A stretch of 64,000 nt of DNA from an uncultured Bdellovibrionales bacterium (GTDB taxonomy: Bacteria > Bdellovibrionota_C > UBA2361 > JBGSMV01). Under the pieces are notes generated by a model. The model saw only the letters and a program-made list of their open reading frames with translations, was not told the DNA's origin and made no database searches. Of this stretch, positions 3,027-24,617 are shown one piece after another (position 1 is the stretch's first letter; each line of letters begins with the position of its first letter). The position numbers and the translations under genes were made by a program. The stretch covers positions 999-64,998 of the forward strand of contig CAZVWV010000002.1 of NCBI GenBank assembly GCA_964631745.1, written 5' to 3'.

Positions 3027-4308
3027 TTAATCTGAGGTCTTAGGAGCTGCATACTGCATTAGTTTTCGATCCAAAAGTAGTATTGAACCGAAAAGAACAC
3101 ATTTCAACAACCAAGCCACCAAGTTATACCCTAAACTCGGCAAAACAGTATAAACCTGGAAACAAAACGCAAGACTGAGCCAGCATTTGCTATATGCGAC
3201 CCAATGAAACAATTTTTGCGACTCCACCATCAAGAGCGTTACCGGCACGATAACTAAGAACTCCTCAAAATGCCCGATATATGGACTGAACAGCAAATAC
3301 ACCGCCATTATATAAATAAGTCCTCGCAACGCCCTGGCGTGCGAGTTTACCTCCACACCAAAAGCTCGCAAACTCGCCAAGCACACCCAGATAAGGAGCG
3401 CGCTCAGGGCACTCGCAAGGCCTTGTGCCAATCGGATTCCGAGAAAAGGCGCAAAGACCCGAATAAAGGTACAGTCTATAAAATCTAACGACCAGAATTT
3501 ATAGGGGCCTTCAAAAGCAGCGCCCGAGTAAGCCCGAAGTGCTGCAAGGTGTTCCCAAAGTATCCCGATCCCCCACCGCGCCGAGACAAACGTCATCGCC
3601 ACCAATAAAAACGTTAAGCCCAGCATCAGCGCCTTGAAACGCCTCGCGAAAATCAATATGGCAGCTCCACAAAGTAAATAAGGGAATTTAATCCCAAGAA
3701 GCAGGATACCAAAACCCATTACCAGATCCCGAGTTATAGTGGCTGATTGAGTAGCGTAGTAAAATAGAAGTAGTAGAAGCCCCGCCGCAAAAATCGAGCT
3801 CTGTCCGAGCATAACCGCCCGCACAAATGGGGAAGAAAAAATGAACGGCAAAATTAAAAGCAGCGGACCATGCCCAATTAGCCCGACAGGCTCAGAGCAG
3901 CGCGTCACCCGGAGCAACCCGTAAAGAAGTATTAAGCATGAAAGGCCGACAAAGTGCATAGGCCAATTGAGGCGAGAGGTGCAGCGCTACTGTAAAGGGA
4001 TACCATACAAGAATAGCAACCGGCCCAACCCCCACCGGCATTACGCCACTAGGCACAGACCCAAAATACGCCGTTAAGCCGTCAATTTGCGACTGCAATG
4101 TATAGATACTCCCAATCTTGTTCGACCAAAGTTCGTCGATTAGTATGAGATGATAGGTAAAGTCTTGAACTCTAAGCAGGCCGAAGTTCGAGGTAATTAA
4201 TCGTTGATTAGCGGCATTTATCAGATAAACAGTGATAACCAAGATACTGAAAACAAGTACGAAAAAGGCTGCGGTATGGGCTCTCTTCTGGTTAATCGTT
4301 GCCTGCAT
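3027..4308 (-). pseudogene. Polytopic membrane protein, putative GT-C/DUF2029-like glycosyltransferase. It is split into two overlapping frames (3892..4308 is the N-terminal part, 3027..3959 the C-terminal part), an apparent frameshift.
   Basis: Two same-strand ORFs overlap by 68 nt in different frames. Both are very hydrophobic and multi-TM. The combined length of about 427 aa is typical for a single membrane GT. Confidence 0.4.
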
Positions 4309-4603
4309 GAATGTGTTATCCGTTATGTGGTGGTTTAACTTAGACTACCTTACCACCGACCTAGCCCAACTAATCTACCATGCGAAAGAGTTGGCCATCG
4401 GGCGAATCCCATATCGCGACATATTTAGCCACCACTTTTTGGGGCTGCTGCTACCACTTCGTGTTATAGACATAATATGGTCGATCTCCCCCGGCCAGCA
4501 ATGGGCACTTTGTCTGGCCTATAATTTTTGCAATGCTATTCTGATCTTTCTCATAGTTCGCGAACTCGCCAGCCCCCGCGAAGCAGCCGTAAGCGGTCAC
4601 TGA
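4232..4603 (+). pseudogene. N-terminal 123-aa fragment of a GT-C glycosyltransferase paralog, truncated by an IS66-family remnant
   Basis: DYLTTDLAQLIYHAKELAIGRIPYRDIFSHHFLGLLLPL aligns with YDITEMIYHALVVKSGRIPYVDDVTHHFMGYVFPL of the 1326..2921 protein. The ORF stops inside the IS66 terminal inverted repeat (GTAAGCG at 4589). Confidence 0.5.
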
Positions 4604-5163
4604 GGCGCGTTATTGCGCAGGCGAATTTTCCAATTTTTTAGCATTCCACTCCGCCGCCCAAAGCCGTGGCGTAAGCTCTGCCACCTTAGCCATGGGGGTG
4701 GAGTCTACACGCTGCAGCACGTCTACGAAATAATCGAACGGTCGCACGCCATGCAACCGGCACGCTGCCACTAAGGATTGCACTATGGCCACCACCTTGG
4801 CGCCAACCTCAGTCCAACAAAACATCCAGTTTTTGCGCCCCATAGGGATAGGTCGTAAGGTACGTTCAAGCTTGTTGTTATCGATGGGAACCGCCGGGTC
4901 GCCCAAAAATACGCGTAGCTCTGCTTCGGCGCGAAGCGCGTGACTGGCAGCTTTGAGAAATGCATTAGATGGTAAAAGCGCCTTGGTCAGCTGCTCAGCC
5001 CGCAGCCAGTTAAAAAACTCATCCACTATCGGACGGGAATGTCGGTCCCGGGCCTTTAGCCTCTCTTCCAAAGAGGCATCTTTAACCACTTCCTCGATAT
5101 CGTAAAGCCGGCGGATATACTCCAGCGCCTTATCACTTAGTTCCGGTTCATACTGCTTTGCTT
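4589..5163 (-). mobile_element. IS66-family remnant. It encodes only the C-terminal ~200 aa of transposase TnpC and is delimited by the characteristic GTAAGCG terminal repeat.
   Basis: ORF 4610..5242 encodes EAKQYEPELSD...VDSTPMAKVAELTPRLWAAEWNAKKLENSPAQ. This is near-identical to ORF 17997..18605 on the opposite strand. The DNA terminus GTAAGCG at 4589..4595 is the typical IS66 end. Confidence 0.8.
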
Positions 5164-5350
5164 CAAAAATAATTGCGTGCGCACTTGGTAAGTTGTCAGG
5201 GAGTGATGAAGATTCGCTAGACACAAAAATTATGTAGCACAATAATTTTCCTGATGCATTATTTTCTCTTCATTCTCGTAAAGAAAATAGCAACTTCTTT
5301 AACTGCAGCCCTTCTAGCACACACATCAGCTCGCGGTAACTTATCTCTTC

Positions 5351-5427
5351 CGTGTGTGGACTCCACCCCCATGTCTAAGGTGGCAGAGCTTACGCCAAGG
5401 CTTTGGGCGGCGGAGGGGATGCTAAAA
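5351..5427 (+). repeat. Third, 77-bp fragment of the same IS66 3' region (it encodes VDSTPMSKVAELTPRLWAAE), in direct orientation to the right copy
   Basis: 5353..5427 matches 18506..18580 with 8 substitutions. It lies 190 bp from the oppositely oriented left remnant. Confidence 0.7.
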
Positions 5428-5466: not shown

Positions 5467-6912
5467 TTAGTCCTTACCAACGGCGTTCTTTCGAATCCAT
5501 AATTGAACGCGCCGGTTATTTGATTTTATTAGTGAGAAATTACTATTAAGATACCGCTGAATATCCAGACCCTCTCTAGTCATGCGCTCATTGAGCGCCA
5601 AGAATCTTTCATGATTTTTTGGATCGATTACGATTACCTTGGCAACATCAAGAATACCGGGCATCGCCAAAGCAGAGACAGATTCATAAAACCCACAGCC
5701 AACTCCCATGGTGGTCAAAATTGGGTCTCTAAGCTTCTTACTAAGAAAGCAAAGCGAAGGGTCCGCAAAAACTAACGCCGAGGATTCGTGTGGGATATTG
5801 TCATCTAGATCTTTTGCCAAGAACCTTTGTTGATCTCTCGGTTGCCATTTCTGGAACTGGAAAGAAAGAGAAGTTACACAAATTGGATAGATCACGAGAA
5901 TACTAAACATCACAGCAAAATAGATTAGCTTGAGGCTATTTCTTTTTAGAGAGCTCTGCATGAGTTGCCAGATACCGGTAAAGGCAATCAACTTTACGAA
6001 TGGCGCGGCTAATATTATATAGTGAGGATAGGTACGGAAATAGAGGGGCAGCAGCGACGCAATCAGTGCAACAAACGCAGCCACTAAAATTTCAAACACG
6101 CATCTTGGCATTGGCAAAGCTACCATCCACAGCAAAGGGACGATGACAGGCGCAAGTAACAGGGTAAGTCGAGCCAATATTTTCCAGTCAAAAGAGAACC
6201 CGGTATAGTGCCCACCCGACAGCGTATGCAATAAGTCGACAGGCGATACACCACCGATAATATATAAGGCCGAGAAACAAAGAATAATGGGGATTGTGTA
6301 TCCGATTATAAAAATGAGTATTCGTTTAATTCTAGTTTCAATATTGAATGAGTTACGCAAAGTTAATAACAGCAAACAGGGAACAATAAATAATCCAAAC
6401 TGCTTGTAAAGAAACGCGAGACCGCTGCAATACCCTGAGAAAAAGACACCTTGAATGGGGTAACGAACGAGCAAGTAGAACGAAAATAAACTCAGTAGAG
6501 CCACAAACGGTTCGAGGACGATGTAAGTACCTTCGTAGTAGAACGTCATAAATAGAAGAGCCAGGGCGCCAAGGGTACTCAAGTTGGGGTCTTTGGTAAT
6601 TATCCTTAGGAGCTTATAAAGTATCCACGCTGTAATAAGCTGAACTACGACTAACATCGATAGGTAGATGGAATAATCAGCTTCTCGATTACTCACCCAG
6701 GCAATAACAGCAAAAGTAAATATTCCGAAAGGTGTGTATCCACAACTAAAATCCCTATAAAGGACCAATCCGTTGGATACATAATTCGCGGCACGCAAGT
6801 AGGCACCCGCATCTGGGTTGATTGGAGCAAACTCAATAATCGAACCCGCTGCTAATGCAAAGATGCAACTTAGTACAATATTTAGAAAAACGATGATTCT
6901 TCTGGGCGACAT
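5467..6912 (-). CDS. Polytopic membrane protein, probable GT-C-fold glycosyltransferase paralog
   Basis: 481 aa with at least 11 TM helices. The first-loop motif GLVLYRDFSCGYTPFG resembles that of the 1326..2921 protein, and there is a C-terminal soluble domain. It directly abuts the GT2 gene with a 0-nt gap. Confidence 0.5.
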   Translation of the reverse strand: MSPRRIIVFLNIVLSCIFALAAGSIIEFAPINPDAGAYLRAANYVSNGLVLYRDFSCGYTPFGIFTFAVIAWVSNREADYSIYLSMLVVVQLITAWILYKLLRIITKDPNLSTLGALALLFMTFYYEGTYIVLEPFVALLSLFSFYLLVRYPIQGVFFSGYCSGLAFLYKQFGLFIVPCLLLLTLRNSFNIETRIKRILIFIIGYTIPIILCFSALYIIGGVSPVDLLHTLSGGHYTGFSFDWKILARLTLLLAPVIVPLLWMVALPMPRCVFEILVAAFVALIASLLPLYFRTYPHYIILAAPFVKLIAFTGIWQLMQSSLKRNSLKLIYFAVMFSILVIYPICVTSLSFQFQKWQPRDQQRFLAKDLDDNIPHESSALVFADPSLCFLSKKLRDPILTTMGVGCGFYESVSALAMPGILDVAKVIVIDPKNHERFLALNERMTREGLDIQRYLNSNFSLIKSNNRRVQLWIRKNAVGKD

Positions 6913-7827
6913 CTAGTCAAGTTGTTTGTCAACTACATAGTTTGGGCGACCTTTAACTTCGTCTAAGATTCGCCAAATATATTCGCCAAGTATTCCCAGC
7001 ATGAACATAATGATGCCGCCAATAATAAGCAATAGCATCATAATTGGTGCCCACCCTTGGAAGGGAATCATATGCGCGTAGTACGCCCAAATGATAGTCA
7101 AGGCGTACAAGAAGCCACTGACAGCAAAGCCTCCCCCTACCACTGTGAGCAAACGAATCGGCAAATAGCTAACGTTCAAAAATGCAGAATAAAAATTCCT
7201 GAACCGTTTTACAGTATTATACTGCGATTTACCCGTTTTCCGCCGCAACTTGTCATAAGGGATAAATTTAGTTCTATAACCAGTCCATAAAATGTCATAT
7301 TGGTAGAAACGATTTCTTTCGCTCAAAGAATTTATAACATTCAATACTTTTCGGTCGAGCAAGGCGAAATCAAATCCACCAGGCGGAACATTTGGCAAGA
7401 GCAACCAATAAAAAATACGTGATGTTAATTTCCTGGCGAAGGAAGTTTGGTGAGTTCGTCTATAGCTAATGACGATTTCGCTCCCTTCCTCCCATGCCTT
7501 GATCATAGGAACACACTGCTCAGGTGGATCTTGTAAATCTGCGGCCATGTTAATCACACATTCACCGCGCGCATATTGCCAACCCGCCAGAATTGCAGCC
7601 ATTTGACCAAAATTCCTGGTAAAAGAGATAACCCGCACCTTCGCGTCACGTTCTTTTAGAGCCAATAATTCTACTAGAGAGGCATCTGTCGACCCATCAT
7701 TTACGAACAGTAATTCGTAAGAATGATGCGGGAAATGGACTGCAAATTCACCCACAATTCGCTCGTAAAGCGGCATTAGCGAACCGGCATTCTGATAAAC
7801 TGGAAAACAAACTGAAATGATACTCAC
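6913..7827 (-). CDS. GT2 polyprenyl-phosphate glycosyltransferase (ArnC/GtrB/DPM1-like) with two C-terminal TM helices
   Basis: VCFPVYQN...NDGSTD...DLQDPPE motifs of GT-A family 2, followed by the C-terminal hydrophobic hairpin typical of ArnC/GtrB. Confidence 0.8.
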   Translation of the reverse strand: MSIISVCFPVYQNAGSLMPLYERIVGEFAVHFPHHSYELLFVNDGSTDASLVELLALKERDAKVRVISFTRNFGQMAAILAGWQYARGECVINMAADLQDPPEQCVPMIKAWEEGSEIVISYRRTHQTSFARKLTSRIFYWLLLPNVPPGGFDFALLDRKVLNVINSLSERNRFYQYDILWTGYRTKFIPYDKLRRKTGKSQYNTVKRFRNFYSAFLNVSYLPIRLLTVVGGGFAVSGFLYALTIIWAYYAHMIPFQGWAPIMMLLLIIGGIIMFMLGILGEYIWRILDEVKGRPNYVVDKQLD

Positions 7828-8098
7828 GTTTCACACATGTTTATTCGATGTAGCTTGCCGTCCTAGGCCCTCATGAAGACCACACTGCACGAGAGTCACG
7901 ACACAAGCTGCATAACAAAACGCTGACCTACCATGGGTTGCCAGTCCACGGGGAAACTACCTCGCCATCCTGTTTACACGTGCGGAGTGGCGGAACTACC
8001 ATTCTTCGCGCCGGCTTGCAATGACTTGCACGATTTTCCATATCTCTTGCCCCCTCGTCCCGGAATCTATTCTCCGACTGGCATGGGAAATAGCACCA

Positions 8099-8839
8099 TT
8101 ACTTTCCCTTTTCACAAACGAGTACAATGCTAGAGCAAAGCTCGGGATAAAGCTGCCCCAATTCATAGCATCCTTTCAAATATTCATCTGAAACAATGTC
8201 CGTAGCAAGAATTCTATCCCATTGAAAGTTAGCAAGGGCCTTAAAAAAAACACCCGCTCTGTATAACACTGAAAATCCCGATGCCCGAGCATCGCGCTCA
8301 AGAGTATCGAGACTATAGGTAATTCTGTGACCATGGGCAGCTTCGGCAGCGGTTACAGCGGAATTATGCGTAATTAGTCCCATTTTAACAGCAATTTGTC
8401 GTGAAGGAGCATTAGCATTGGGGCAAACCAAGAAAAATCTACCATCATCCGTTACCCATTCTGTATTCACCCGCTTTAAGATTTCAACGGGGTTGTCCGC
8501 ATGTTCAAGAACGTGGATCATCAGAATATTATCAAATCGACACGGCAGCACTAAATCTTCGAAACGGCCATGAACAAAATTGATCTTCTTCGGTAGGCGA
8601 CTACGAGCGATGCGCAAAGCATCCGAAGACGCGTCGACACAAGTGATCTCATCAAAATGACCCAAAATTCGTTCGGTAAAATCACCTTGAAAACTGCCAA
8701 GTTCAAGAGCCTTCCCAGCTCTAAAAAATGGAGCAATGGTGCGAAGCACAAACGGGTGCATCACTTCGTAGTCAAAGCGATAGGCATACTTGCGCACTTC
8801 GTTATCTTTACATTCTTTATTGTAATCTCTGCTTGACAT
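8099..8839 (-). CDS. Class I SAM-dependent methyltransferase
   Basis: Motif I ALELGSFQGDFT and motif II/III ILMIHVLEHADNP. It is paralogous to the 13318..14058 product; both end in a PELC/PELSCG region. Confidence 0.75.
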   Translation of the reverse strand: MSSRDYNKECKDNEVRKYAYRFDYEVMHPFVLRTIAPFFRAGKALELGSFQGDFTERILGHFDEITCVDASSDALRIARSRLPKKINFVHGRFEDLVLPCRFDNILMIHVLEHADNPVEILKRVNTEWVTDDGRFFLVCPNANAPSRQIAVKMGLITHNSAVTAAEAAHGHRITYSLDTLERDARASGFSVLYRAGVFFKALANFQWDRILATDIVSDEYLKGCYELGQLYPELCSSIVLVCEKGK

Positions 8840-8899
8840 CGAAATTAAGTGTATATTTTAAGTCGCCAAATTGGAGCTCGGTCATAAATTATATTAAAA

Positions 8900-9856
8900 T
8901 CACAGTTCGACCAATTGCGCCATACCGAAACCCGTCTTGCCAAATTCATTGCCATTATAGAGTAGATAGATCTGTTCATCGCATCGAAATATATGGGGAT
9001 AGCAAAGCATTTGGGAATCCCAGCCACTTTCTGAACGATTTAATCCTCCCCTCTTGTCATCGCGAATCCAATTGACTAAATCCATCGAACGGGCATAGCC
9101 AAGCCGATAACTCCGTTGCTTTCCTGATCTAAACCCCGTAGCGTGGCGATAACAGAAATACATATGGTAGCAATCATCAATTTTAATCACGCTTGGAAGC
9201 GCCTGACACTCATTTTCGTCTAAAACAGTCTCGATAAGCTGCTTACTGTCACGTTGCCAATGAACTCCGTCCACCGACTGTGCCTGAGCAATGCGGTAAA
9301 CCCTTTGTGGCTCAGTTTCATACGGATCGCAAAACCACTTACATCCGTAGATATACCACATATAGTATCGCTCCCCAATTTTGGATACAAAAGCATCGCT
9401 GACCAAAAAGGGCTCAAGAAGCGAAGCACCTAGTACTGGGCCCTGACCAAGCTTCTCGAATGTCAGCCCTTGATCGTTACTCACCGCATAGCCAATCGAT
9501 GCCTCAGCTGATACAGAGACTCTTCTACTCCATCCAGTCGTGTATGCAATTATCTTATTCCCGTCCCGAAGAACATTCATCGGAAAAATGCCGTGTTCGT
9601 CGAAACATCCGGGTCCTCCCAAGGCGATGACAGGTTCTTGGGCGACAGCCCTAATTGATTTAAAATCCTTATCGAAATCGACATAAGCTACCAGACTCAA
9701 ATATTTTCCATTCTTGTCGAGCATTCGAGTCGAGAAATATACTCGCACAAAATCGTCAAAGACTAAGGCCTGGGGCGACTGTGCGAAAGCCGTACACTGC
9801 TTAGGAAGCTTATGGGTCGAAGGATCGAATATCTGCCCCAATTTTTTCCAAAACAT
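8900..9856 (-). CDS. BNR/Asp-box repeat beta-propeller protein (sialidase or glycoside-hydrolase-like fold), paralog 2
   Basis: Asp-box motifs SNDQGLTF and SVDGVHW. About 45% identical to the adjacent 9863..10828 product (MFWKKLGQIFDP vs MFSWKKLGRVLDP). Confidence 0.45.
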   Translation of the reverse strand: MFWKKLGQIFDPSTHKLPKQCTAFAQSPQALVFDDFVRVYFSTRMLDKNGKYLSLVAYVDFDKDFKSIRAVAQEPVIALGGPGCFDEHGIFPMNVLRDGNKIIAYTTGWSRRVSVSAEASIGYAVSNDQGLTFEKLGQGPVLGASLLEPFLVSDAFVSKIGERYYMWYIYGCKWFCDPYETEPQRVYRIAQAQSVDGVHWQRDSKQLIETVLDENECQALPSVIKIDDCYHMYFCYRHATGFRSGKQRSYRLGYARSMDLVNWIRDDKRGGLNRSESGWDSQMLCYPHIFRCDEQIYLLYNGNEFGKTGFGMAQLVEL

Positions 9857-9862
9857 TTCTTC

Positions 9863-10828
9863 TTAAGCCCCCGAGTAAGTGTCTAATTCTGCTAATCCAA
9901 AACCGACTCTGCCGATTTCATTCCCTTGGTAAAGCACGTACAGTTTACCGTCCAGTTCTACCAAATGAGCATAGCTTATAGATTCCGAGTCCCATCCGGA
10001 CCCCGACGTAGTCAAACCGGCTCGTCCATCCAAACGCACCCAATTATAAAGGTCGTCCGAGCAAGCATAGCCTATACGATAACCACGAGTTGGCTGAGTG
10101 AATCTCAGTGCATACCGGTATGAAAAAAACATATGATACTTATCTCTGAAGAAGGTGACATCGGGACTTGCTTGACATTCCTCTTCGCTCAAGACGGGAG
10201 GAATTAATGTCTTGCCAACTTTAGTCCAGTTCAACCCGTCACTCGAGTAGGCCATGCGTATCTTGTATACCGGTTCTGAACGAGTATCGGTCAGTAGCCA
10301 CTTATCGCCCGCGACGTACCAAAGGTACCACATGTCTTTAAATCTTCTAATTTTTGGACTCCCGATAACAAAGGGTTCGTCTGGGCTATAACCGAGCACT
10401 GGTCCTTCACCAAGACGTTGAAAAGTTTCTCCATTATCCCAGCTGACGGCGACACCAATAGCAGCATTAAACGGGACCGATTCGCATCTGGTCCAACCTG
10501 CATAATACAGTCTTATTTCGTCACCGTAGCGAATGACAGAAGCAGGATAGATACCAAATTCATCGAAGGTGCCTAAGCGGCCGAGCGGTAAGACTGGATT
10601 TGGAGCCAATGCTTTGACACAACGAAGATCTTTTCGATCTAAATCGACGTAACCAAGCTGGCTTACATACTGACCGGCACTATCGGGAGATGTACGAGAT
10701 GAGAAGAAGACTCGAACATTCTCGTCAAGCACCAAGGCTGAAGGAGCCTGCGCAAACTCTCGAATCCATGTTGAACTTGGTATTGAGGCGGGATCAAGAA
10801 CTCTACCCAATTTTTTCCATGAAAACAT
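9863..10828 (-). CDS. BNR/Asp-box repeat beta-propeller protein (sialidase or glycoside-hydrolase-like fold), paralog 1
   Basis: Asp-box motifs SWDNGETF and SSDGLNWT. Tandem paralog of the 8900..9856 product. Confidence 0.45.
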   Translation of the reverse strand: MFSWKKLGRVLDPASIPSSTWIREFAQAPSALVLDENVRVFFSSRTSPDSAGQYVSQLGYVDLDRKDLRCVKALAPNPVLPLGRLGTFDEFGIYPASVIRYGDEIRLYYAGWTRCESVPFNAAIGVAVSWDNGETFQRLGEGPVLGYSPDEPFVIGSPKIRRFKDMWYLWYVAGDKWLLTDTRSEPVYKIRMAYSSDGLNWTKVGKTLIPPVLSEEECQASPDVTFFRDKYHMFFSYRYALRFTQPTRGYRIGYACSDDLYNWVRLDGRAGLTTSGSGWDSESISYAHLVELDGKLYVLYQGNEIGRVGFGLAELDTYSGA

Positions 10829-10839
10829 ATTCCGTGCTG

Positions 10840-11511
10840 CTAAGACAGTTTACACAAACTCTCTGCACCGGTTTTCAAGCATCCATAGTAATAGTCGTTA
10901 AAACCAGCGGCTTCCATCATCTCGAAAATTTTATGCATATCGTATGTGACCCTATGTAATTCAAATCGACCATCGAATGTCGCAAAAGCAGCACGCGGGT
11001 CCTTGTCTCGTGGTTGCCCAACTGAGCCGGGGTTGCAATAAGCCTTGCTGCCATAGTCGCATAAGATCTGCTTATGAGTGTGCCCTGAAACAAAAAATTT
11101 GCCGACAATATTACGAAAATAGTCAGCAGTAGGTTGTACATACTCATCAATGGGATCCGACCAACCGCCGTGAACCAAATGCAGCTTACCTACTCTTCTA
11201 TGCAACGAAAGTTGGCTTAACCAGCTCAAGTTGTCCGCGGTAATAATCTTGCGTTGGTAGGTCAAACAATCGTTGACACTTCTGGAGCGCGGACAGAAGC
11301 CTCCGCCCACCATATACCAATCGTGATTGCCCATTATTGTGGGGATTTCACGCCCTATGAGCTCCTGACAACACTCATTGATCTGAGGATAATAGCCTAC
11401 GACATCACCAAGACAATACACCTGCGACACGCGCAGCGCATCTAGCTTCGCCAAGACCGATTGTAATGCTTCGTAATTGCCATGGATATCAGAAATGAGA
11501 CCAATTTTCAT
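10840..11511 (-). CDS. Calcineurin-like metallophosphoesterase (YfcE/MJ0936-type)
   Basis: DIHGN, GDvvgyyP, GNHD and GHTH motifs. Overlaps the upstream ATP-grasp gene by 4 nt. Confidence 0.75.
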   Translation of the reverse strand: MKIGLISDIHGNYEALQSVLAKLDALRVSQVYCLGDVVGYYPQINECCQELIGREIPTIMGNHDWYMVGGGFCPRSRSVNDCLTYQRKIITADNLSWLSQLSLHRRVGKLHLVHGGWSDPIDEYVQPTADYFRNIVGKFFVSGHTHKQILCDYGSKAYCNPGSVGQPRDKDPRAAFATFDGRFELHRVTYDMHKIFEMMEAAGFNDYYYGCLKTGAESLCKLS

Positions 11512-12470
11512 TTATACGAAACTAAGTCTTCCACATAACGTACCGCTTCGCCATATCTAAGCTTGGGCTGGCGCGGCAACTTCTTTTCTAGAAAAAAATC
11601 AACTAACATCGCAGACTCGTTGTAGCCAAAAGCAGTTCGCATAGATGTGGAAGAAGAGATGCGCGGGTTAATTTCAAGCAATTTTAAGGCCCCGGCGTGT
11701 TTTCTAAATTGAAAATTTGTAGGTCCCAGCGGGCGAAAATAGCGGCACAGTTCGCGCAAGACATCTTGCGCCTCATCGAGTTTCACAACTTCCGCCCTGT
11801 CCGTATATCCATCCTTTGATAACCTACGGCGCAAACTTATTTGCGCACAGTAATCGCCATTTCCATCACCAAAGACTGAAACAGTATACTCTTCCTCGTC
11901 ACTTCCCACAAGTGCTTGCGACATTAAAGACTTACCAATATTCTCACGATGGGCCAGAAATACAGTCCGATCTGCCACCCTCACTATTCCGCGAGCAGCA
12001 TGCCCATGACGCGGTTTCAATATGAACGGAACGCCGAACCGTTCAGCAAGAAGATCAAAATTGTCATCCAATGACGAATCTATAACAAATGCTGGATTGA
12101 GTTTTGCCAGGTGTCCATAAAAAACCCATTTGTCCTTGCAAAGGGCGATTAACTCCGGTCTGTTCAGCGCGAATATGCGGCTGTTTTTTGACATTTCATG
12201 CAAATTCTCACTCCACTTGTACATATCAATCTCAATTCCCGGGACAACTAAATCCACTGCATGCTTACGAATCGTTGCATCCAACCATCCTATATAGCCG
12301 TCGTCATTTGTATTCGGAGCAACTTCAAAAATATCACTGAAGTGTTCAGCGATAGTTCCCGTATAGATGGAAGTGCCAATCAGCGTCACGTTTTCATGGA
12401 CTTTCCGCAGGGAACGCAAAATTCCATAACCGATAATTCCACTGGCTCCCGAAACCAAAATTGTTGTCAT
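11508..12470 (-). CDS. ATP-grasp family ligase
   Basis: FILKPRHGHAARGI (the ATP-binding lysine loop) and LEINPRISSS (the E-x-N signature of ATP-grasp enzymes). N-terminal Rossmann-like GASGIIG. Confidence 0.75.
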   Translation of the reverse strand: MTTILVSGASGIIGYGILRSLRKVHENVTLIGTSIYTGTIAEHFSDIFEVAPNTNDDGYIGWLDATIRKHAVDLVVPGIEIDMYKWSENLHEMSKNSRIFALNRPELIALCKDKWVFYGHLAKLNPAFVIDSSLDDNFDLLAERFGVPFILKPRHGHAARGIVRVADRTVFLAHRENIGKSLMSQALVGSDEEEYTVSVFGDGNGDYCAQISLRRRLSKDGYTDRAEVVKLDEAQDVLRELCRYFRPLGPTNFQFRKHAGALKLLEINPRISSSTSMRTAFGYNESAMLVDFFLEKKLPRQPKLRYGEAVRYVEDLVSYK

Positions 12471-13354
12471 ATGTCTATCTTTGTCCTTCTCGAAGATGCT
12501 ATGCGATTTAACCCTTCCTGAATAGAAATCTTAGGGTAAAAACCGATTCGCTCATAAAGCGAGAAGTTCTTATGGAAGATCTTATCAGCAAGGTCGTCTC
12601 GCGTAATATCGAAGCTGACCTTCCCATGGCGCCCAAACGCCTCAAAGGCGGCATTAGCAACAGTTGAATAAGAATAATCCTGTACATACTGGCAATTGTA
12701 GATCCCTTCGAGACGCAGCTGTACAACTCGGCGCAAGACATCCGTGAGATCTTCGATGAAAATGTAATTTCGTAAAGCGTCATGGCTACCGTAAATGATG
12801 ATATCTCTGCCAGCTTGAGCTTGATCAATAATATGATACAAGAAAGGCTGATGTCGACGGAAGTTTTCAGTCTCACCGTAAATTTGAGAAGGACGCACGA
12901 TGCACAACGGGAGAGAGTTGGTTGCACAATGCATCACCGCCACATCCTCAGAATATCTTTTTGTCAAAGCATATGGTGAATACGAAGCAAAACCTTGCCC
13001 AATAGATGCAAAAATGCTCGAAACTTGAATAAAATGCTTTGCGCCCATTTTGGCGGCTTTTTCACAAAGCCTTAGTGTCCCAAGGACATTAATATTGATT
13101 GCGTCTGATAGTTGATTATACGACGCACCTCCGAAGTGCGCCGCGGTATTTATAACAACATCCAGATTCGTTGGAATTTCCATCTCCTCTGGACCTTCCG
13201 CCAAGTCAACATGAACATCACAAGAATTCCGGCCGCCGGTCACTACCTCACAGAATTCAGAAAGCGCAACTTTGAGTGCTACCCCTAATGCAGAATGACC
13301 CCCGACAATCAGAACTTTCATCGCATCCTCTGAATTTGGGCTAGTATTCCGCAC
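12467..13354 (-). CDS. NAD-dependent epimerase/dehydratase family (extended SDR) protein
   Basis: N-terminal MKVLIVGGHSALG nucleotide-binding motif and catalytic YALTK (YxxxK). Overlaps both neighbouring genes by 4 nt and 37 nt. Confidence 0.7.
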   Translation of the reverse strand: MRNTSPNSEDAMKVLIVGGHSALGVALKVALSEFCEVVTGGRNSCDVHVDLAEGPEEMEIPTNLDVVINTAAHFGGASYNQLSDAININVLGTLRLCEKAAKMGAKHFIQVSSIFASIGQGFASYSPYALTKRYSEDVAVMHCATNSLPLCIVRPSQIYGETENFRRHQPFLYHIIDQAQAGRDIIIYGSHDALRNYIFIEDLTDVLRRVVQLRLEGIYNCQYVQDYSYSTVANAAFEAFGRHGKVSFDITRDDLADKIFHKNFSLYERIGFYPKISIQEGLNRIASSRRTKIDI

Positions 13355-14058
13355 GAAAGTTCAGGATAACCAATTCCTACTTCACATAATGCGTCGATAA
13401 TCCGATGGTCTAGCTTCAAATCCAAAATTTGCTTGGTCGTAAACGGTTTGAGATAAATTCCTTCCAATTGCGCAATCTCACAACCTGCCTTATGCACGTC
13501 CTCTCTCAATGTACGAACAGTATAGTAGCGCTTGTGTCCAAGCAAAACATCATTGCCCGATAGCTCTTCGATGTTGGGCAGCAAGCCCGCAATGTGCCCC
13601 AGCCTTCGATTAAGGGCTTCGGCATTAGGCACGGCAACATATAGTGTCCCACCGGGCTCCAAAAATCTTGCATAACGCGAAATGAGAAAAGCGGGATTAT
13701 CCACATGCTCCAAAACAAAGCCCAAAACAATCAAGTCAAAAATCTCAGTGGTGTCAAAACTTTCGAAGAGTGACTCAACTACTTGCGCTGAACAATCTGG
13801 AAATCTTTGCTTAAAATGGACTGTGACGGCAGGCGAACCATCTATCACCACATGTCGTTTAAAATGCTTCGCGAATCTAGCGGTGGAATACCCATGACCC
13901 AATCCTAACTCTAATAAAGACTTCGCCTCACCTGACAAGGCAATGATTCGCTCAGGATACCAATTCAATAAAATTTCATTATCAAAATCGTACAAAATCC
14001 CACCGTTATAGGCAGTGACCGATCTATCCAATGTTTTATTCATAGGTGTGTCACTCAT
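13318..14058 (-). CDS. Class I SAM-dependent methyltransferase, paralog of the 8099..8839 product
   Basis: Motif I LELGLGHGYS, LIVLGFVLEHVDNP, and a C-terminus co-linear with the other methyltransferase. Confidence 0.7.
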   Translation of the reverse strand: MSDTPMNKTLDRSVTAYNGGILYDFDNEILLNWYPERIIALSGEAKSLLELGLGHGYSTARFAKHFKRHVVIDGSPAVTVHFKQRFPDCSAQVVESLFESFDTTEIFDLIVLGFVLEHVDNPAFLISRYARFLEPGGTLYVAVPNAEALNRRLGHIAGLLPNIEELSGNDVLLGHKRYYTVRTLREDVHKAGCEIAQLEGIYLKPFTTKQILDLKLDHRIIDALCEVGIGYPELSCGILAQIQRMR

Positions 14059-14064
14059 GTCTTA

Positions 14065-15150
14065 TTATTCGATTACTTCACCGACGATCCTAGCTATTTT
14101 GGAAACAATTTCAGACTCAAGGTCATGATACAATGGTAAGCATAGCACTCGCTTGGCTACGTCTTCCGTAATTGGAACGCTTTGCGGTTTAACATAATTA
14201 AGCCTATTCAGCGCAGGGTAAAAGTAGCGACGGGTCAATATAAGTTGATCTTTCAACGCAGCACGGACACGCAACAAAACGCTTTCTGATTCAAAAAGCA
14301 CAGGATAGTAAGAATAATTATATTGCAGACCTGGTTGGCTAGTCGGCCTGCTAAGCTTAGCCTTCCAAAATGGCGCCAGCAGCCTGTCGTATTCATCGGT
14401 TACGACTTTTCTTTTTTGAATGAGTGTTGGAACATGGGGAAGAACTGCTAGGCCCATAGCAGCGTGGAGTTCCGAATTCTTTGCATTAATTCCTAATCCA
14501 AAAAAAGCCTCGGGGCCATTGTGCCCGAAATTCATCAAGTAAAATATCTTGTGTGCGAGGTCATCGTCATTAGTTAAAATGGCCCCGCCTTCCCCAGTAT
14601 GAAATAGTTTAGTGGCATGGAAACTGACTGTCGAGATATCGCCGTTATTTAATATCGCTTTTCCATTCAAACGACACGCAAAAGCCTGGGCCCCGTCGTA
14701 TATGACCTTGAGACGATTAGCTTCTGCGATTTGCTGTATTTTTTCCACATCGCAACTATTACCGTAAACATGCACCGGCAAAATTGCCGATGTATTTCCA
14801 TTAATTTTTGCTTCTATACATGCAGGGTCGAGACAAAATGTGCGCGGGTCTATTTCAGAATAAATTGGCTCGCACCCCTCCCAACAAATCGCCGCGGTAG
14901 TGGCGACGTAACTGAAAGCGCTAGTGATAATTTCCCCACCAAGTCCTAGTGCGCGAATAGCAATTTGCAAGGCAATCGTGCCGTTGCTGACTAGATAAAC
15001 ATGCTTTACTCCGAACAGAGACTTAAGCTCGGCCTGCAAGCGCTGAGATAGAGGACCATGATTCGTAACCCAACGCTGGTCCCAAATTTGCCGCAGATAT
15101 TCCACATAGGTATTAAAATCGGGAACGAATGTTTTGGTTACGGTAATCAT
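14065..15150 (-). CDS. DegT/DnrJ/EryC1/StrS-family PLP-dependent sugar aminotransferase (ArnB/PseC-like)
   Basis: 361 aa. SFHATK carries the PLP lysine. Family-typical N-terminus (VTKTFVPDFNTYVEYLRQIWD..WVTNHGP) and C-terminal LCLPLYHDL. Confidence 0.85.
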   Translation of the reverse strand: MITVTKTFVPDFNTYVEYLRQIWDQRWVTNHGPLSQRLQAELKSLFGVKHVYLVSNGTIALQIAIRALGLGGEIITSAFSYVATTAAICWEGCEPIYSEIDPRTFCLDPACIEAKINGNTSAILPVHVYGNSCDVEKIQQIAEANRLKVIYDGAQAFACRLNGKAILNNGDISTVSFHATKLFHTGEGGAILTNDDDLAHKIFYLMNFGHNGPEAFFGLGINAKNSELHAAMGLAVLPHVPTLIQKRKVVTDEYDRLLAPFWKAKLSRPTSQPGLQYNYSYYPVLFESESVLLRVRAALKDQLILTRRYFYPALNRLNYVKPQSVPITEDVAKRVLCLPLYHDLESEIVSKIARIVGEVIE

Positions 15151-16898: not shown

Positions 16899-17603
16899 GT
16901 GAAAATAGCTATCATGCAACCGTACTGGTTTCCATACATCGGCTATTTTCAGCTCATGTCCGCAGTGGACACCTTCATAGTATACGACAATGTGCAGTAT
17001 ACAAAAAAGGGTTGGGTTAATCGCAATCGAATACTCCATCAAAGTCAACCAGTTCAAATCTCCATACCCATAAAGAAAGGGGGTCATTCGCTATTCATAA
17101 TTGACCGGATCATTGCTGACAATTGGAGTACACAACGGTGGAGAATCTTAAATCAAGTGCGCGATTTTTACCTGCAAGCTCCGATGTATCAAGATGTATT
17201 CCCACTAGTAGAGAACTGCCTATTGCACGAAGATTTAAATCTTTTTCGACATATTTCCTATTCAATTCGTAAGACCCGTGAGTACATGGGCTTGGCGTCA
17301 ACTTTTCTCGTTTCCTCCGAATTAAAAATCGATCACACCCTAAAAGGAGAAGACAAAGTTATTGCAATTTGTAGCGAAATCGGCGCAAAGCAATACATAA
17401 ACCCAATCGGTGGAACCGAACTTTACTCCAGGGAGAAATTCGCCTCATATGGCATTGATTTGCGATTCTTGAAGTCAAAGCAAATTGAATACAAACAATT
17501 CGATAAATCCTTCGTGCCTTGGCTCTCAATAATTGACGTGTTAATGTTTAATGACCTAGAAACTACTAATCAGTTTCTGAAACACGAATATATGTTGCTG
17601 TAA
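16899..17603 (+). CDS. WbqC-like family protein (function unknown, polysaccharide loci)
   Basis: MKIAIMQPYWFPYIGYFQLMSAVDTFIVYDNVQYTKKGWVNRNRI is the hallmark N-terminus of the WbqC family. GTG start. Confidence 0.75.
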   Translation: MKIAIMQPYWFPYIGYFQLMSAVDTFIVYDNVQYTKKGWVNRNRILHQSQPVQISIPIKKGGHSLFIIDRIIADNWSTQRWRILNQVRDFYLQAPMYQDVFPLVENCLLHEDLNLFRHISYSIRKTREYMGLASTFLVSSELKIDHTLKGEDKVIAICSEIGAKQYINPIGGTELYSREKFASYGIDLRFLKSKQIEYKQFDKSFVPWLSIIDVLMFNDLETTNQFLKHEYMLL

Positions 17604-17746: not shown

Positions 17747-18626
17747 ATGACAGTGAAAGCGTTTTGCGCGGAGCGCAAGCTCAATTACTATACGTTTAAG
17801 GGCTGGCAGAGAGTGTTTAGCCGAGAGGGAGTAGAGCAGTTTCGCGAGTTGGCACCCACGCCAAATGCGGAGGCTAGCTACGCTGTAGTGTTAGCCAACG
17901 GCCGGGAGCTTAAAGTAAGCGCTGGATTTTCGATTACATCTAGGGGGCCAGGGGAACGGTACCAATTCTGGTCAACCACCGATCCGGTCGGCACTTTTGT
18001 TAGAGCCCATATACGAGGCGCAGCTAGCCTCGGCGCTCAACGAGTTCTTTGAAGCAAAGCAGTATGAACCGGAACTAAGTGATAGGGCGCTGGAGTATAT
18101 CCGCCGACTTTACGATATCGAGGAAGTGGTTAAAGATGCCTCTTTGGAAGAGAGGCTAAAGGCCCGGGACCGACATTCCCGTCCGATAGTGGATGAGTTT
18201 TTTAACTGGCTGCGGGCTGAGCAGCTGACCAAGGCGCTTTTACCATCTAATGCATTTCTCAAAGCTGCCAGTCACGCGCTTCGCGCCGAAGCAGAGCTAC
18301 GCGTATTTTTGGGCGACCCGGCGGTTCCCATCGATAACAACAAGCTTGAACGTACCTTACGACCTATCCCTATGGGGCGCAAAAACTGGATGTTTTGTTG
18401 GACTGAGGTTGGCGCCAAGGTGGTGGCCATAGTGCAATCCTTAGTGGCAGCGTGCCGGTTGCATGGCGTGCGACCGTTCGATTATTTCGTAGACGTGCTG
18501 CAGCGTGTAGACTCCACCCCCATGGCTAAGGTGGCAGAGCTTACGCCACGGCTTTGGGCGGCGGAGTGGAATTCTAAAAAATTGGAAAATTCGCCTGCGC
18601 AATAACGCGCCTCAGTGACCGCTTAC
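17747..18626 (+). mobile_element. IS66-family remnant. A short tnpA-like ORF (17747..18052) is fused or adjacent to the C-terminal ~200 aa of tnpC (17997..18605), ending in the terminal repeat CGCTTAC at 18620..18626. tnpB and the N-terminal half of tnpC are deleted.
   Basis: HTH-like FCAERKLNYYTFKGWQR and ...VVLANGRELKVSAGF resemble IS66 TnpA. 18049..18622 is about 97% identical to the reverse complement of 4590..5163. Confidence 0.75.
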
Positions 18627-18833: not shown

Positions 18834-20306
18834 CTACATCCCACCCACAGCCACTTCAGCCAGCCGATACAGCCCTGATGGGAACAGCCCAAAATACACG
18901 ACCCCAAAGGCGCAGAGCGCCATTGAGAGCTTTATTAGTGCGTTTGGCCCGATTGAGGATTGGAGGGTGCGGGATTCTTCGTCGCCTTCTATGAAGTACA
19001 TGGCTACGATTACTCGGAGGTAGTAGTAGCAGGAGACGGCGGAGCTTAGGATGCCTAGGATGGCTAGGCCGGGGTAGCCGGCTTTTACTACGGCGCTGAA
19101 GACGTAGACTTTGCCCATTAGGCCGGCCATGCCGGGGGGCAGGCCTGCTAGGGAAAGTAGGAATAGGGTGAAGAGTGCGGCTAGGAGGGGTTGGGTTGTG
19201 CTTAGGCCGTTAAAGCGTGAGAGGTTATCTGCGTGGCGCTCGGATGAGAATCTGCTGCTTATGGCTATTAGGGCGCCGAATGCGCCCATGGTCATTAGGG
19301 TGTAAGAGACTAGGTAATAGAGCGCGCCGGGGCCGCCGCCGAAGTCGTTCGTGGGGGCAAGCAGGGCCATTAGAACGTAGCCTGCGTGGGCTATGCTGGA
19401 ATATGCCAGCATGCGTTTAACACTTCGTTGTCTTAGGGCGATTAGGTTTCCTATTACCATGGTTAGTAGCGCCAGGGTCCAGACTAGGCCGGACCATTGG
19501 GTGAAGTAGGCTCCAAAGCCGGTCCAGATAACTCTGAATGCGGCCGCAAAAGCTGATGCTTTAATGGCGCAGGCCATGAAGGCTGTTACGGGGGTTGGCG
19601 CGCCTTGGTAGACATCGGGCGCCCAGTAGTGAAACGGAACGGCTCCAATTTTGAAGGCCAACCCGATGATTATCAGTCCTAGTCCTATTAGGGAGAGAGT
19701 TTGATCGCCTTTGATAATTAGCTCGCCGATTATGGCTATATCGGTGCTGCCGGTTACTCCGTATAGAATGGCTATACCAAATAAGAGAAAGGCTGAACTA
19801 AAGGAGCCTAGAAAGAAATATTTTAGGGCGGCTTCAGAGGAAACTTTGCGATCGTAGGCGGCCCCGCAAAGGCAGTAGAGCGCCATCGACATAATCTCAA
19901 GCGCCAGGAATAACATAATAAGCTCAGCGGAGGTGGCAAACCAGATCGCACCGGCTGTGGCCATCAGATACAGCGCGTAGTATTCGGCTGTGGACTCTAT
20001 GCCCTCGTCTCTTAACTTATTGAGTCCTAGTAAAATTCCAAAAAGTGATCCGGCTAGAATTAATACCGTTACAAAGAGCGCGTACGGGTCGGCGAATATA
20101 AATCCTTGGAAGATTCGGGAACCGGCTTGAAAGCCGGAGAGGTTAAAGGCGCAAGCGACAAGTGAGAGCACCACTATGTTACCGGCGAAAGCTCCGCGTG
20201 CCCACTCTGCTTTCGAAAATACATCTATCAAGAGAAGCAGCATTGCCCCTATGCAAAGTATGATGGGGGCGGCTCCTAATGAGAGCTCACTTAGTAGCGC
20301 ATTCAT
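18834..20306 (-). CDS. nuoN: NADH-quinone oxidoreductase subunit N
   Basis: 490 aa, 14-TM antiporter-like subunit, last gene of the nuo operon. Confidence 0.9.
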   Translation of the reverse strand: MNALLSELSLGAAPIILCIGAMLLLLIDVFSKAEWARGAFAGNIVVLSLVACAFNLSGFQAGSRIFQGFIFADPYALFVTVLILAGSLFGILLGLNKLRDEGIESTAEYYALYLMATAGAIWFATSAELIMLFLALEIMSMALYCLCGAAYDRKVSSEAALKYFFLGSFSSAFLLFGIAILYGVTGSTDIAIIGELIIKGDQTLSLIGLGLIIIGLAFKIGAVPFHYWAPDVYQGAPTPVTAFMACAIKASAFAAAFRVIWTGFGAYFTQWSGLVWTLALLTMVIGNLIALRQRSVKRMLAYSSIAHAGYVLMALLAPTNDFGGGPGALYYLVSYTLMTMGAFGALIAISSRFSSERHADNLSRFNGLSTTQPLLAALFTLFLLSLAGLPPGMAGLMGKVYVFSAVVKAGYPGLAILGILSSAVSCYYYLRVIVAMYFIEGDEESRTLQSSIGPNALIKLSMALCAFGVVYFGLFPSGLYRLAEVAVGGM

Positions 20307-20307
20307 C

Positions 20308-21912
20308 TTAAATACCCCTCAATGAAAGTTTTTGTTGCTGAATGATAGCACTCACGTCTACGTTCGATTGGCGCTCGGCGTACCGCTTCTCGCCACTTTG
20401 GACCAACATTACCCGGCGCGCCTCGACTGATGAAATATAGGCGCTGATTGTGGGCTCCATGCGCGCGAAAAATGGCCCGGGGAAGAGTCCCATAACGAAG
20501 ACCAAGACAAGCAGCGGGGCGAAAAAGGCCAGTTCCGTGGGCGTCACGTCTTTCAAGTCACCGTTTTTCTTCTCATCAATCTCGCCGTACATGGTGCGCA
20601 TATAAAGGGTAAGCATATAAATAGCGCCAAGCACCACACCGGCGCAGGCTATGATTGTAAGCACTGGCAGTGTCTTAAAACTTCCGATAAGAATTGCAAA
20701 TTCCCCTACGAAGCCATTGGTGAGCGGCAGGGCGATGGAGCTTAAGGTAAATACTAAGAAAAGGAATGCAAAAATCGGGATGCGAGATGCCAGTCCACCG
20801 TATTCGGAGATCTCTCTGGTGTGGCGGCGATCGTATAGCACTCCGACTAAGAGGAAGAGCGCGCCGGTTGAGATGCCGTGGTTTAACATCTGATAGATTG
20901 AACCAGCGGTGGAGACCACGTTAAAGGCCACAAAACCAAGCACACAGTACCCAAGATGCGAAACAGAAGAATATGCCACAAGTTTTTTGATGTCGTGCTG
21001 GGCCCAGGCCACTAGCGCGCCAAATACCACGCCGATAACGGCGAGTGTTCCGATGTATGGCGCATAGACTTCAGCAGCCCGCGGGAAGAGCGGATAAGCA
21101 AAGCGGATAAATCCGTACAGGCCCATCTTTAATAGAACCCCCGCCAGCACAACCGAGCCGCCCGTGGGGGCTTCAACGTGCGCGTCCGGAAGCCAGGTGT
21201 GGAACGGAAATATGGGGACCTTAATTCCAAAGGCCAAGGCGAAGGCGCCAAAGAGCCAGAGCTCTTCTTTTAAGGTTAGGTTTGAACTTAGAAGAAGTTT
21301 TTCTAAATCAAATGTTAGCTGCCCATTCGAAGCCTCGTAGTACTTCCAGACGGTGTACATCAGAGCTACCAACATCAGCACTGAGCCAAAGACTGTATAA
21401 AGCACAAACTTCAAAGTGGCGTATATTTTTCGTTTGCCTCCCCAAACCCCGATGATGAAATACATGGGGGCCAGCATCAGCTCCCAAAATACGTAGAACA
21501 GGAACATATCTAGGGCTAAAAGCGTGCCGAGCATGGCGGTCTCAAGCACTAACATACTGGCGAGATAGCCACGCACCTTTTTCTCAACTGAACCGGAGGC
21601 CATTACGATGAGCGGCATTAGAAAAGTCGTGAGAAGCACTAAGAAGATACTGATGCCGTCAACTCCGAGCGCATACCCGATTCCAAAACCGGGGATCCAT
21701 TCTTTGCGCTCAACTAACTGGTATGTCGAAAGCGCGCCGTCAAATTGGCGCAGCACCAGGAGCGATACAAAGAATGTAAACAGCGTGGCAGTCAGCGCCA
21801 CGGCTCTAACACTCTTACCGTCGCGGTCGCAGCTTGGCCCGCAAAAAGGAAGCAGGTAGAGCGCCAGCGCCCCAAGCAGCGGAGTAAAAATTGTCCAGGA
21901 GAGAAGTCCCAT
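20308..21912 (-). CDS. nuoM: NADH-quinone oxidoreductase subunit M
   Basis: 534 aa antiporter-like subunit with conserved FPFHTWLPDAH. Confidence 0.9.
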   Translation of the reverse strand: MGLLSWTIFTPLLGALALYLLPFCGPSCDRDGKSVRAVALTATLFTFFVSLLVLRQFDGALSTYQLVERKEWIPGFGIGYALGVDGISIFLVLLTTFLMPLIVMASGSVEKKVRGYLASMLVLETAMLGTLLALDMFLFYVFWELMLAPMYFIIGVWGGKRKIYATLKFVLYTVFGSVLMLVALMYTVWKYYEASNGQLTFDLEKLLLSSNLTLKEELWLFGAFALAFGIKVPIFPFHTWLPDAHVEAPTGGSVVLAGVLLKMGLYGFIRFAYPLFPRAAEVYAPYIGTLAVIGVVFGALVAWAQHDIKKLVAYSSVSHLGYCVLGFVAFNVVSTAGSIYQMLNHGISTGALFLLVGVLYDRRHTREISEYGGLASRIPIFAFLFLVFTLSSIALPLTNGFVGEFAILIGSFKTLPVLTIIACAGVVLGAIYMLTLYMRTMYGEIDEKKNGDLKDVTPTELAFFAPLLVLVFVMGLFPGPFFARMEPTISAYISSVEARRVMLVQSGEKRYAERQSNVDVSAIIQQQKLSLRGI

Positions 21913-21918
21913 ATCTTC

Positions 21919-23805: not shown

Positions 23806-23810
23806 ATTTA

Positions 23811-24113: not shown

Positions 24114-24115
24114 AA

Positions 24116-24613: not shown

Positions 24614-24617
24614 ATCA

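Follow-up and report, generated by a model that had tools for sequence, protein, structure and literature searches.

A paired family of five-bladed beta-propeller proteins in a widespread sugar-tailoring gene cassette

What do two paralogous beta-propeller proteins do in the middle of an operon of sugar-tailoring enzymes? The question is raised by a 64,000-nucleotide (nt) stretch of contig CAZVWV010000002.1 (assembly GCA_964631745.1, positions 999 to 64,998 of the forward strand) from an uncultured Bdellovibrionales bacterium. We call this whole stretch the window and use its coordinates throughout. Two adjacent open reading frames (ORFs) lie on its minus strand: PropB at 9863..10828 (321 aa), the upstream paralogue, and PropA at 8900..9856 (318 aa), in the order B then A with a gap of 6 nt. 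An earlier note on this DNA had described them as paralogues of about 320 aa and 45% identity, and alignment gives 47% identity across 315 residues (E 3e-102). It had also assigned them to the cytoplasm; a hydropathy scan finds no hydrophobic N-terminus, signal peptide or transmembrane (TM)-like segment in either protein. Both genes are embedded, as it said, in a same-strand run of sugar-tailoring genes whose neighbouring stops and starts abut or overlap. What is new here is a family that belongs to a familiar propeller superfamily and occurs in an unusual paired, biosynthetic setting. A non-hydrolytic role is our best lead for its function, held with modest confidence and by analogy.

The propeller fold proposed earlier is borne out by an AlphaFold2 (AF2) model, which has five four-stranded blades and an N-terminal closing strand; PropB is predicted to be a cytoplasmic five-bladed beta-propeller. 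All fold matches listed are five-bladed, and the predicted fold can be superposed on GH130 structures. No GT108 chain is among the fold matches listed. When PDB sequences are searched with the family profile, the best matches are the GH130 beta-1,2-mannoside phosphorylases 9fj8 (E 8e-11) and 7fip (E 1.4e-9). Curated models give less. Pfam GH130 (PF04041) scores 26.0 bits for PropA, which is exactly its cut-off and has its best stretch only at residues 184–248, and 13.2 bits for PropB. The NCBIfam model of beta-1,2-mannobiose phosphorylase scores the two propellers at 52 and 44 bits against a cut-off of 450 bits. Pfam GH32N reaches 27 bits in PropB (cut-off 22.1 bits) and Pfam GH43 reaches 21 bits. 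All Pfam and NCBIfam matches are weak, partial and within the five-bladed clan, except for BNR_4, which is found in PropA only and below threshold (17.2 bits against 27.3). The GH32N, GH43, GH130 and GINT1_N matches fall on differing blades in different homologues, so they reflect similarity at the level of blades, not a family assignment. No Pfam or NCBIfam model covers the propeller family, and a literature search found no characterisation of it or of WbqC, a frequent neighbour described below. The propellers are related to invertases and mannoside phosphorylases rather than to sialidases. By fold they group with these and with GH43 and GH137, and they make up a separate, unnamed family within the GH32/GH43/GH130/GH137 superfamily, one without a curated model.

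The earlier note had labelled the pair BNR or sialidase-like, citing two clear Asp-boxes in each protein. One box per protein stands: a regular expression for S-x-D-x-G-x-T-[WF] matches each exactly once, with a chance of 0.00015 to 0.0009 in shuffles of the same composition. The match is SWDNGETF in PropB (10421..10444, minus strand; aa 129–136, placed in blade 2 by DSSP of the model) and SNDQGLTF in PropA (9458..9481, minus strand; aa 126–133). The remaining boxes are variants that are one residue shorter or lack the Gly, of the forms S-x-D-G-x-x-W and S-x-D-L-x-x-W: SVDGVHW and SMDLVNW at aa 194–200 and 257–263 of PropA, and SSDGLNW and SDDLYNW at aa 195–201 and 257–263 of PropB. A short Asp-box, or ‘s-Asp-box’, was described for five-bladed GH32/GH43 propellers by Quistgaard and Thirup, and the exo-inulinase of Aspergillus niger combines one full Asp-box, in blade 2, with short ones in other blades (PMC2716378). 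Since the pattern in PropA and PropB matches this five-bladed group, it does not support a sialidase-like reading. A six-bladed BNR/Asp-box sialidase would account for the one canonical box in each protein, and one RefSeq record, for the PropB orthologue on a Rhizobium sp. CIAT894 plasmid (NZ_CP020948.1, 79417–80364), is labelled ‘exo-alpha-sialidase’. Against it stand the five blades of the model and the sub-threshold BNR_4 score, besides which a Pfam scan of both propellers lists no other BNR or sialidase family at E up to 10. The sialidase F/YRIP motif is also missing, as neither translation contains RIP. In the PDB sequence search no sialidase chain scores better than E 0.71, and there is no sialidase among the fold matches listed. 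We regard the sialidase label as ruled out, with a residual probability that is negligible.

How widespread is the pair? A word-index search with PropB returns 6057 homologues, the best of them 59–66% identical and from very different phyla, and an exhaustive search of representative proteins gives 7714 matches and 963 clusters at E < 1e-30. Nearly all proteins from the representative search are single-domain and 310–325 aa long. The cassette that carries the pair is represented in Bacteroidota, Pseudomonadota, Bacillota, Chloroflexota, Acidobacteriota, Melainabacteria and others, and both paralogues are 55–61% identical across phyla. For synteny we compared 38 genome loci and one annotated Rhizobium plasmid locus, 39 in all, with the window as the 40th source; several loci are cut by contig ends and the gene counts are minima. 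Reciprocal comparison separates A-type from B-type proteins in every locus, and the two form separate orthologous groups. Both copies are full length in 36 of the 39 loci; the B copy is broken in L026, and L023 and L034 each have only one B-like copy. The A/B duplication is ancient, and the pair is probably co-transcribed.

The usual gene order of the cassette is DegT – WbqC (PF08889) – PropB – PropA – GNAT – class I methyltransferase (MT1) – glycosyltransferase family 2 (GT2). DegT is present in 35 of the 40 sources, WbqC in 33, the methyltransferase cluster in 26 and the main GNAT cluster in 20, with a second GNAT type in three more. The co-occurrence with DegT and ATP-grasp genes that the earlier note proposed to check therefore applies to DegT, while the ATP-grasp type found in the window occurs in a minority of loci only; the constant partner that it did not see is WbqC. 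Genes similar to RmlA and RmlB adjoin the cassette in several loci, and Wzm/Wzt ABC transporter genes flank it in others. In a betaproteobacterial variant, PropB and PropA are convergent around an FkbM methyltransferase and are accompanied by an AMP-ligase, a ketoreductase-type short-chain dehydrogenase/reductase (SDR), a hexapeptide acyltransferase and TPR-GT41 glycosyltransferases, which are taken to be protein O-glycosyltransferases. One locus (L003) has an ATP-grasp protein with an L-amino-acid-ligase C-terminal domain (8768–9967) at the position of WbqC, between DegT and PropB; it looks like a non-orthologous replacement. The same ATP-grasp type occurs in L025 (2826–4109), where WbqC is retained too. 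A distant unpaired homologue from Bernardetia, 33% identical, lies in the context DegT-WbqC-MT-acetyltransferase-propeller. The 628-aa protein downstream of it was checked as a possible second propeller and is not one.

In Dickeya zeae WH1, the genes reported between fliA and fliC are a methyltransferase, a glycosylase, two hypotheticals, WbqC, DegT and a further methyltransferase-domain protein (PMC9650423). By gene names only, this insert corresponds to the cassette, and fliA–fliC is a typical position of a flagellin glycosylation island. A survey of enterobacterial flagellin islands does not mention propellers. A distant blastn search of 8000–11600 against all complete Escherichia coli genomes returned nothing; at a protein identity of about 55%, WbqC-bearing O-antigen clusters could still be present there. 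Two observations on individual family members stand apart. The cassette of Rhizobium leguminosarum UPM791 is split by an IS3 element and its WbqC is truncated. Three giant proteins, P0243 (5844 aa, the top match of the representative search), P0356 (2300 aa) and P0301 (1935 aa), are matched by the propeller profile in 9 to 40 separate stretches and may be multi-propeller repeat proteins.

What could the two proteins bind? Conservation reaches 95% or more in both orthologous groups at about 40 residues, many of them charged and at the funnel; in the model they appear to occupy the canonical active-site funnel position of the superfamily. Those at or just before the inner strands are Gln27 and Pro29 (blade 1), Asp89-Glu90 (blade 2), Glu151-Pro152 (blade 3), Glu217-x-Gln219 (blade 4) and Asp280 (blade 5), and those at the ends of second strands are Arg45, Arg238, Asn303 and Arg/Lys307. 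Every PropA sequence has Arg114, as do almost all PropB sequences. The conserved Arg residues suit a phosphate-bearing ligand, with Arg45, Arg114, Arg238 and Arg/Lys307 as candidate phosphate binders. Blade 1 reads F-A-Q-A/S-P in both paralogues and has no Asp, so the nucleophile or base of GH32 and GH43 is missing. GH130 phosphorylases likewise lack a base, because phosphate attacks instead, and by this analogy the missing Asp resembles the phosphorylases. Glu217 of PropB and Glu216 of PropA are invariant in 39 and 38 sequences, respectively, and are followed by Cys, Ala or Ser. By the blade topology of the model this Glu is a candidate counterpart of the GH32 ‘EC’ acid/base.

The two orthologous groups differ at polar positions. 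His88 is found in 38 of 38 PropA sequences and is Phe in 39 of 39 PropB sequences. Asp154, also in all 38 PropA sequences, is replaced by Gly, Ser or Thr in PropB and is acidic in none of the 39; Asn301, again invariant in the 38, is Leu, Cys or Gln in PropB (39 sequences). PropA also keeps extra Arg residues beyond those of PropB. In the register that sequence alignment favours, Asp154 falls on the catalytic Asp of the GH130 ‘EDPR’ motif, although the residue mapping is ambiguous. PropA-type propellers with a C-terminal GNAT domain, about 470 aa long, occur in three independent representatives (P0257, P0274 and P0300), and GNAT-MT1 fusions occur in L008, L020 and L026 (ORFs of 390–402 aa, called from ORF length and the lack of a separate GNAT gene). 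Together these fusions tie PropA to steps on a soluble intermediate.

Which intermediate this might be is suggested by the partner enzymes. The window's DegT-family pyridoxal phosphate-dependent aminotransferase (14065..15150, minus strand; Pfam PF01041, 287 bits) is nearest to the DesI, VioA and perosamine-synthase 4-aminotransferases (NCBIfam DesI 246 bits, below cut-off; PDB 2po3, E 1e-53). DesI is a dTDP-4-keto-6-deoxyglucose 4-aminotransferase. This type of DegT, with RmlA and RmlB nearby, indicates a 4-amino-4,6-dideoxyhexose nucleotide. The model of WbqC has a fold like that of BshC and class-I LysRS, and we infer that it is probably an ATP-dependent ligase acylating the sugar amine with an amino acid or other acid. 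The sugars of E. coli O-antigens include ones with amide-linked glycine, N-acetylglycine, alanine, N-acetylserine and allothreonine (PMC7685785). The GNAT protein of the cassette is RimI-like. In the pathway that we propose, the propeller pair, DegT and WbqC are the constant core of a mobile cassette, which would tailor a 4-amino-4,6-dideoxyhexose nucleotide; this is most likely linked to dTDP, with RmlA and RmlB as its suppliers. WbqC, or an ATP-grasp ligase in its place, would N-acylate or aminoacylate the sugar amine, GNAT would acetylate and MT1 would methylate. GT2 would then pass on the finished sugar, in the window to polyprenyl phosphate and from there to a 10-TM transferase. We take the wbq gene names to come from the O121 cluster, with the sugar Qui4N(N-acetylglycyl). 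A nonulosonic acid pathway of the PseC/PseH/PseG type was rejected, since no cassette contains a synthase or CMP-transferase.

The clusters for viosamine, perosamine and anthrose (VioA/VioB, Per, Ant and the Pseudomonas syringae viosamine island) share with the cassette a DesI/VioA-like aminotransferase, an N-acyl transferase and a methyltransferase. They are likewise supplied by RmlA and RmlB and serve O-antigens and flagellin glycans. We know of no characterised cluster of this type in which propellers or WbqC are required steps, whereas here WbqC, PropB and PropA are the most conserved genes of the cassette.

Where, then, would the propellers act? The pair stays the same where the enzymes for acylation and methylation change, PropA is fused to enzymes that work on the soluble intermediate, both propellers are cytoplasmic, and a Leloir-type GT2 lies downstream; on these grounds we would place the propellers on the nucleotide sugar or sugar-1-phosphate. 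From the established genes, fold, orthologous groups, synteny and fusions we infer a substrate class, a hetero-oligomer and a reaction type, and our tentative proposal is that PropA and PropB act non-hydrolytically, as an A/B pair, on a nucleotide-sugar intermediate. They would form a hetero-oligomer that takes a soluble small molecule as substrate. The reaction would be at the anomeric C1-O-phosphate bond of the nucleotide sugar or sugar-1-phosphate, and the chemistry would be of phosphorylase or transferase type, as in GH130_6 and GT108, and not glycan hydrolysis. Catalysis would fall to PropA, which has the full equipment, with Asp154 as the acid together with His88, Asn301 and the extra Arg. 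Its partner PropB would be degenerate in part or have another specificity, and both subunits would supply Arg for the phosphates. A broader claim is possible but, in our view, doubtful: that PropA and PropB are a new enzyme family for an undescribed step on a nucleotide-activated 4-amino-6-deoxyhexose and, with a BshC-like WbqC aminoacylating the sugar amine, belong to an unrecognised pathway that crosses phyla and whose product ends up on O-antigens and flagellins. Such a step would be, for example, phosphorolytic or transferase C1 chemistry with a change of anomeric configuration, nucleotide carrier or ring form as its result.

The earlier note had suggested a non-hydrolytic role, such as that of a phosphorylase or transglycosylase. 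Such a role plausibly fits the closest solved relatives by sequence, the GH130 subfamily 6 phosphorylases Teth514_1788/1789 (9fj8 and 7fip). These phosphorylases both break and make C1-O-phosphate bonds and act as transferases on GDP-mannose, and the GH130_4 enzyme Uhgb_MS has a nucleotide docked at its dimer interface (PMC12814180). Identity to these closest relatives is only 18–20%, and the Pfam GH130 match, at or below threshold, extends over about 65 residues. PropB lacks the Asp, and the propellers are an A/B pair whereas GH130 enzymes are homo-oligomers. The setting is amino-sugar biosynthesis and not mannan catabolism, and action on mannose is unsupported. The GH137 beta-L-arabinofuranosidase BT_0996 (5mui, 5mt2), at 16–17% identity, is periplasmic and degrades polysaccharide from a pectin utilisation locus, unlike the cytoplasmic propellers. 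GH32 invertases and inulinases (exo-inulinase 1y4w) have five blades, with one full Asp-box in blade 2 and short ones elsewhere, as in the propellers, and the blade-4 Glu-Cys of the propellers resembles their ‘EC’ acid/base motif. However, the nucleophile Asp of the GH32 WMNDPNG motif corresponds to Gln-Ala-Pro in the propellers, and the Asp of RDP is absent in PropB.

Several observations weigh against a phosphorylase- or transferase-type step. The known routes to viosamine and perosamine do without such a step, which leaves the proposed reaction with no assigned place in textbook chemistry. Downstream of the cassette there is usually a conventional GT2 or another glycosyltransferase, and a transferase role of the propellers is thus not required; that they serve as the only glycosyltransferase of the cassette was considered and rejected, as another is nearly always present. 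None of the best 150 representatives is an A-B fusion. Only one propeller is encoded in L023 and L034, as is the case for the distant homologues of Bernardetia and Leisingera, and the convergent genes of the betaproteobacterial variant, with a methyltransferase between them, indicate that co-translation is not obligatory. Conservation of Glu217 is not strict among distant homologues that lack a partner, and the ambiguous mapping of active-site residues applies here too.

Could the propellers instead be ordinary cytoplasmic glycoside hydrolases? They might release free sugar from an NDP-sugar, as PseG does, or edit and trim mis-made lipid-linked or soluble glycosides. Every solved structural neighbour other than the GH130 phosphorylases is a hydrolase, and Glu217-Cys218 at the start of blade 4, with a Glu invariant in both paralogues, resembles the GH32 acid/base. 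The combination of DegT, GNAT and a sugar-cleaving protein also recalls what we take to be the PseC/PseH/PseG layout of pseudaminic acid synthesis. We nevertheless consider hydrolysis unlikely, because blade 1 has Gln27-Ala28-Pro29 where the Asp nucleophile or base should be, the cassette has no NeuB/PseI-like synthase or CMP-transferase to use a released sugar, and the downstream Leloir-type GT2 needs an intact nucleotide sugar.

Reactions away from the glycosidic bond are a further option: an amidase, deacetylase or cyclase whose target is the N-acyl or aminoacyl side chain, or else an acetyl group, with the five-bladed GalNAc deacetylase of Flavonifractor plautii as a precedent. That deacetylase is no closer to the propellers than dozens of glycosidases are, and the two paralogues have no conserved His-rich metal site in common. 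The pair also persists across differing acyl chemistry (GNAT; hexapeptide transferase with AMP-ligase; ATP-grasp), which argues for a step on the constant part, the sugar nucleotide, and makes side-chain chemistry improbable. The propellers might also be non-catalytic, binding an intermediate and channelling it among DegT, WbqC, GNAT and MT1 or presenting it to the membrane GT2. Such a scaffold is compatible with the GNAT fusions, with a catalytic residue set that is not completely kept for any known family and with the loss from PropB of polar residues kept by PropA. We think it very improbable, since 55–61% identity across phyla and some 40 residues at least 95% conserved, charged funnel residues included, exceed what binding usually demands.

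A glycoside hydrolase-like fold in a sugar operon is unsurprising in itself. The breadth of the cassette, the A/B pairing and three conserved genes with no assigned function (WbqC, PropB and PropA) make a well-defined and testable gap. The cassette is widespread, in O-antigen loci with Wzm/Wzt and beside TPR-GT41 glycosyltransferases, and an answer for the propellers would fill in a common route by which surface glycans diversify, with a bearing on serotyping, phage receptors and immune recognition. If the propellers are biosynthetic, they could add such an activity to a superfamily known almost wholly for glycan breakdown. Public labels for homologues, which include ‘glycosylase’, ‘SacC/GH32’, ‘GH43/DUF377’ and ‘exo-alpha-sialidase’, are all misleading; other homologues are named ‘hypothetical’. 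Proteins nearly identical to the CIAT894 orthologue, on other Rhizobium plasmids, carry the ‘glycosylase’ label.

The cassette in the window is a variant that adds an SDR, an ATP-grasp ligase and a phosphoesterase. Next to DegT, all on the minus strand, are a class I S-adenosylmethionine (SAM)-dependent methyltransferase, MT2 (13318..14058), at the same position in L010, L044 and L045; an NAD-dependent SDR of epimerase/reductase type (12467..13354; Pfam Epimerase, 88 bits), syntenic in L001, L010, L044 and L045; an ATP-grasp ligase of the ATPgrasp_Ter/PRK12767 type (11508..12470), syntenic in the same four loci; and a YfcE-like, calcineurin-like metallophosphoesterase (10840..11511) that is 61–67% identical in L001 and L010. 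MT2, the SDR, the ATP-grasp ligase and the phosphoesterase belong to the variant module. After the propeller pair, as in most loci, comes MT1 (8099..8839, minus strand), a NodS-like class I SAM-dependent methyltransferase that is 56–67% identical across phyla. It is followed by the GT2 (6913..7827, minus strand), similar to the polyprenyl-phosphate sugar synthases PgfS, ArnC and GtrB (NCBIfam PgfS 191 bits and ArnC 140 bits, both below cut-off) and with two C-terminal TM segments. The next protein (5467..6912, minus strand; 481 aa) has about 10 TM segments by hydropathy and no Pfam or NCBIfam match. A 27% identical counterpart lies beside GT2 in L022, and the protein is a candidate GT-C type transferase that would receive the lipid-linked sugar. 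The window's WbqC gene (16899..17603, plus strand) is full length, detached from DegT and inverted. Intact copies of the variant are found in L010, in Herbaspirillum (L044) and on a metagenome contig of 1.6 Mb (L045); in these three, WbqC is the next gene after DegT, and a GNAT is lacking from the cassette.

The sugar island, 12.9 kb in all, is bracketed by the arms of a 579-nt inverted repeat that are 99% complementary. The left arm (4589..5167) lies inside a C-terminal fragment of an IS66 transposase (ORF 4610–5242, minus strand), and the right arm (18048..18626) inside another such fragment (ORF 17997–18605, plus strand). GC content is 0.44–0.47 in the island and 0.49–0.53 in most of the remaining window, the neighbouring nuo operon included. 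The IS66 inverted repeats, the lower GC and the detached WbqC make the island look horizontally acquired and locally rearranged, with a layout like that of a composite transposon or invertible segment. Promoter and terminator scans give only a modest excess over shuffles (32 against 23.4 expected and 25 against 13.1) and leave the operon ends unmarked. Two direct copies of a 73-nt element (5347–5419 and 18498–18570, 90% identical) lie close to where the IS66 fragments have their inner edges, and a third, inverted copy lies within the left fragment (4645–4717). The element may be an IS66 terminal or internal repeat.

The island is inserted beside core energy-metabolism genes. A nuo (NADH:quinone oxidoreductase) operon at 18834–28671 on the minus strand, with NuoN/M/L-, NuoH-, NuoG- and NuoF-like genes, directly adjoins the right IS66 fragment. 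Just outside the left arm, also on the minus strand, are two multi-TM proteins without a Pfam match, at 1326–2921 (531 aa, about 7 TM segments) and 3027–3959 (310 aa, about 8 TM segments), which could be remnants of glycan export or transfer machinery. An MqsR toxin and MqsA antitoxin pair is encoded at 968–1270 and 559–966, again on the minus strand.

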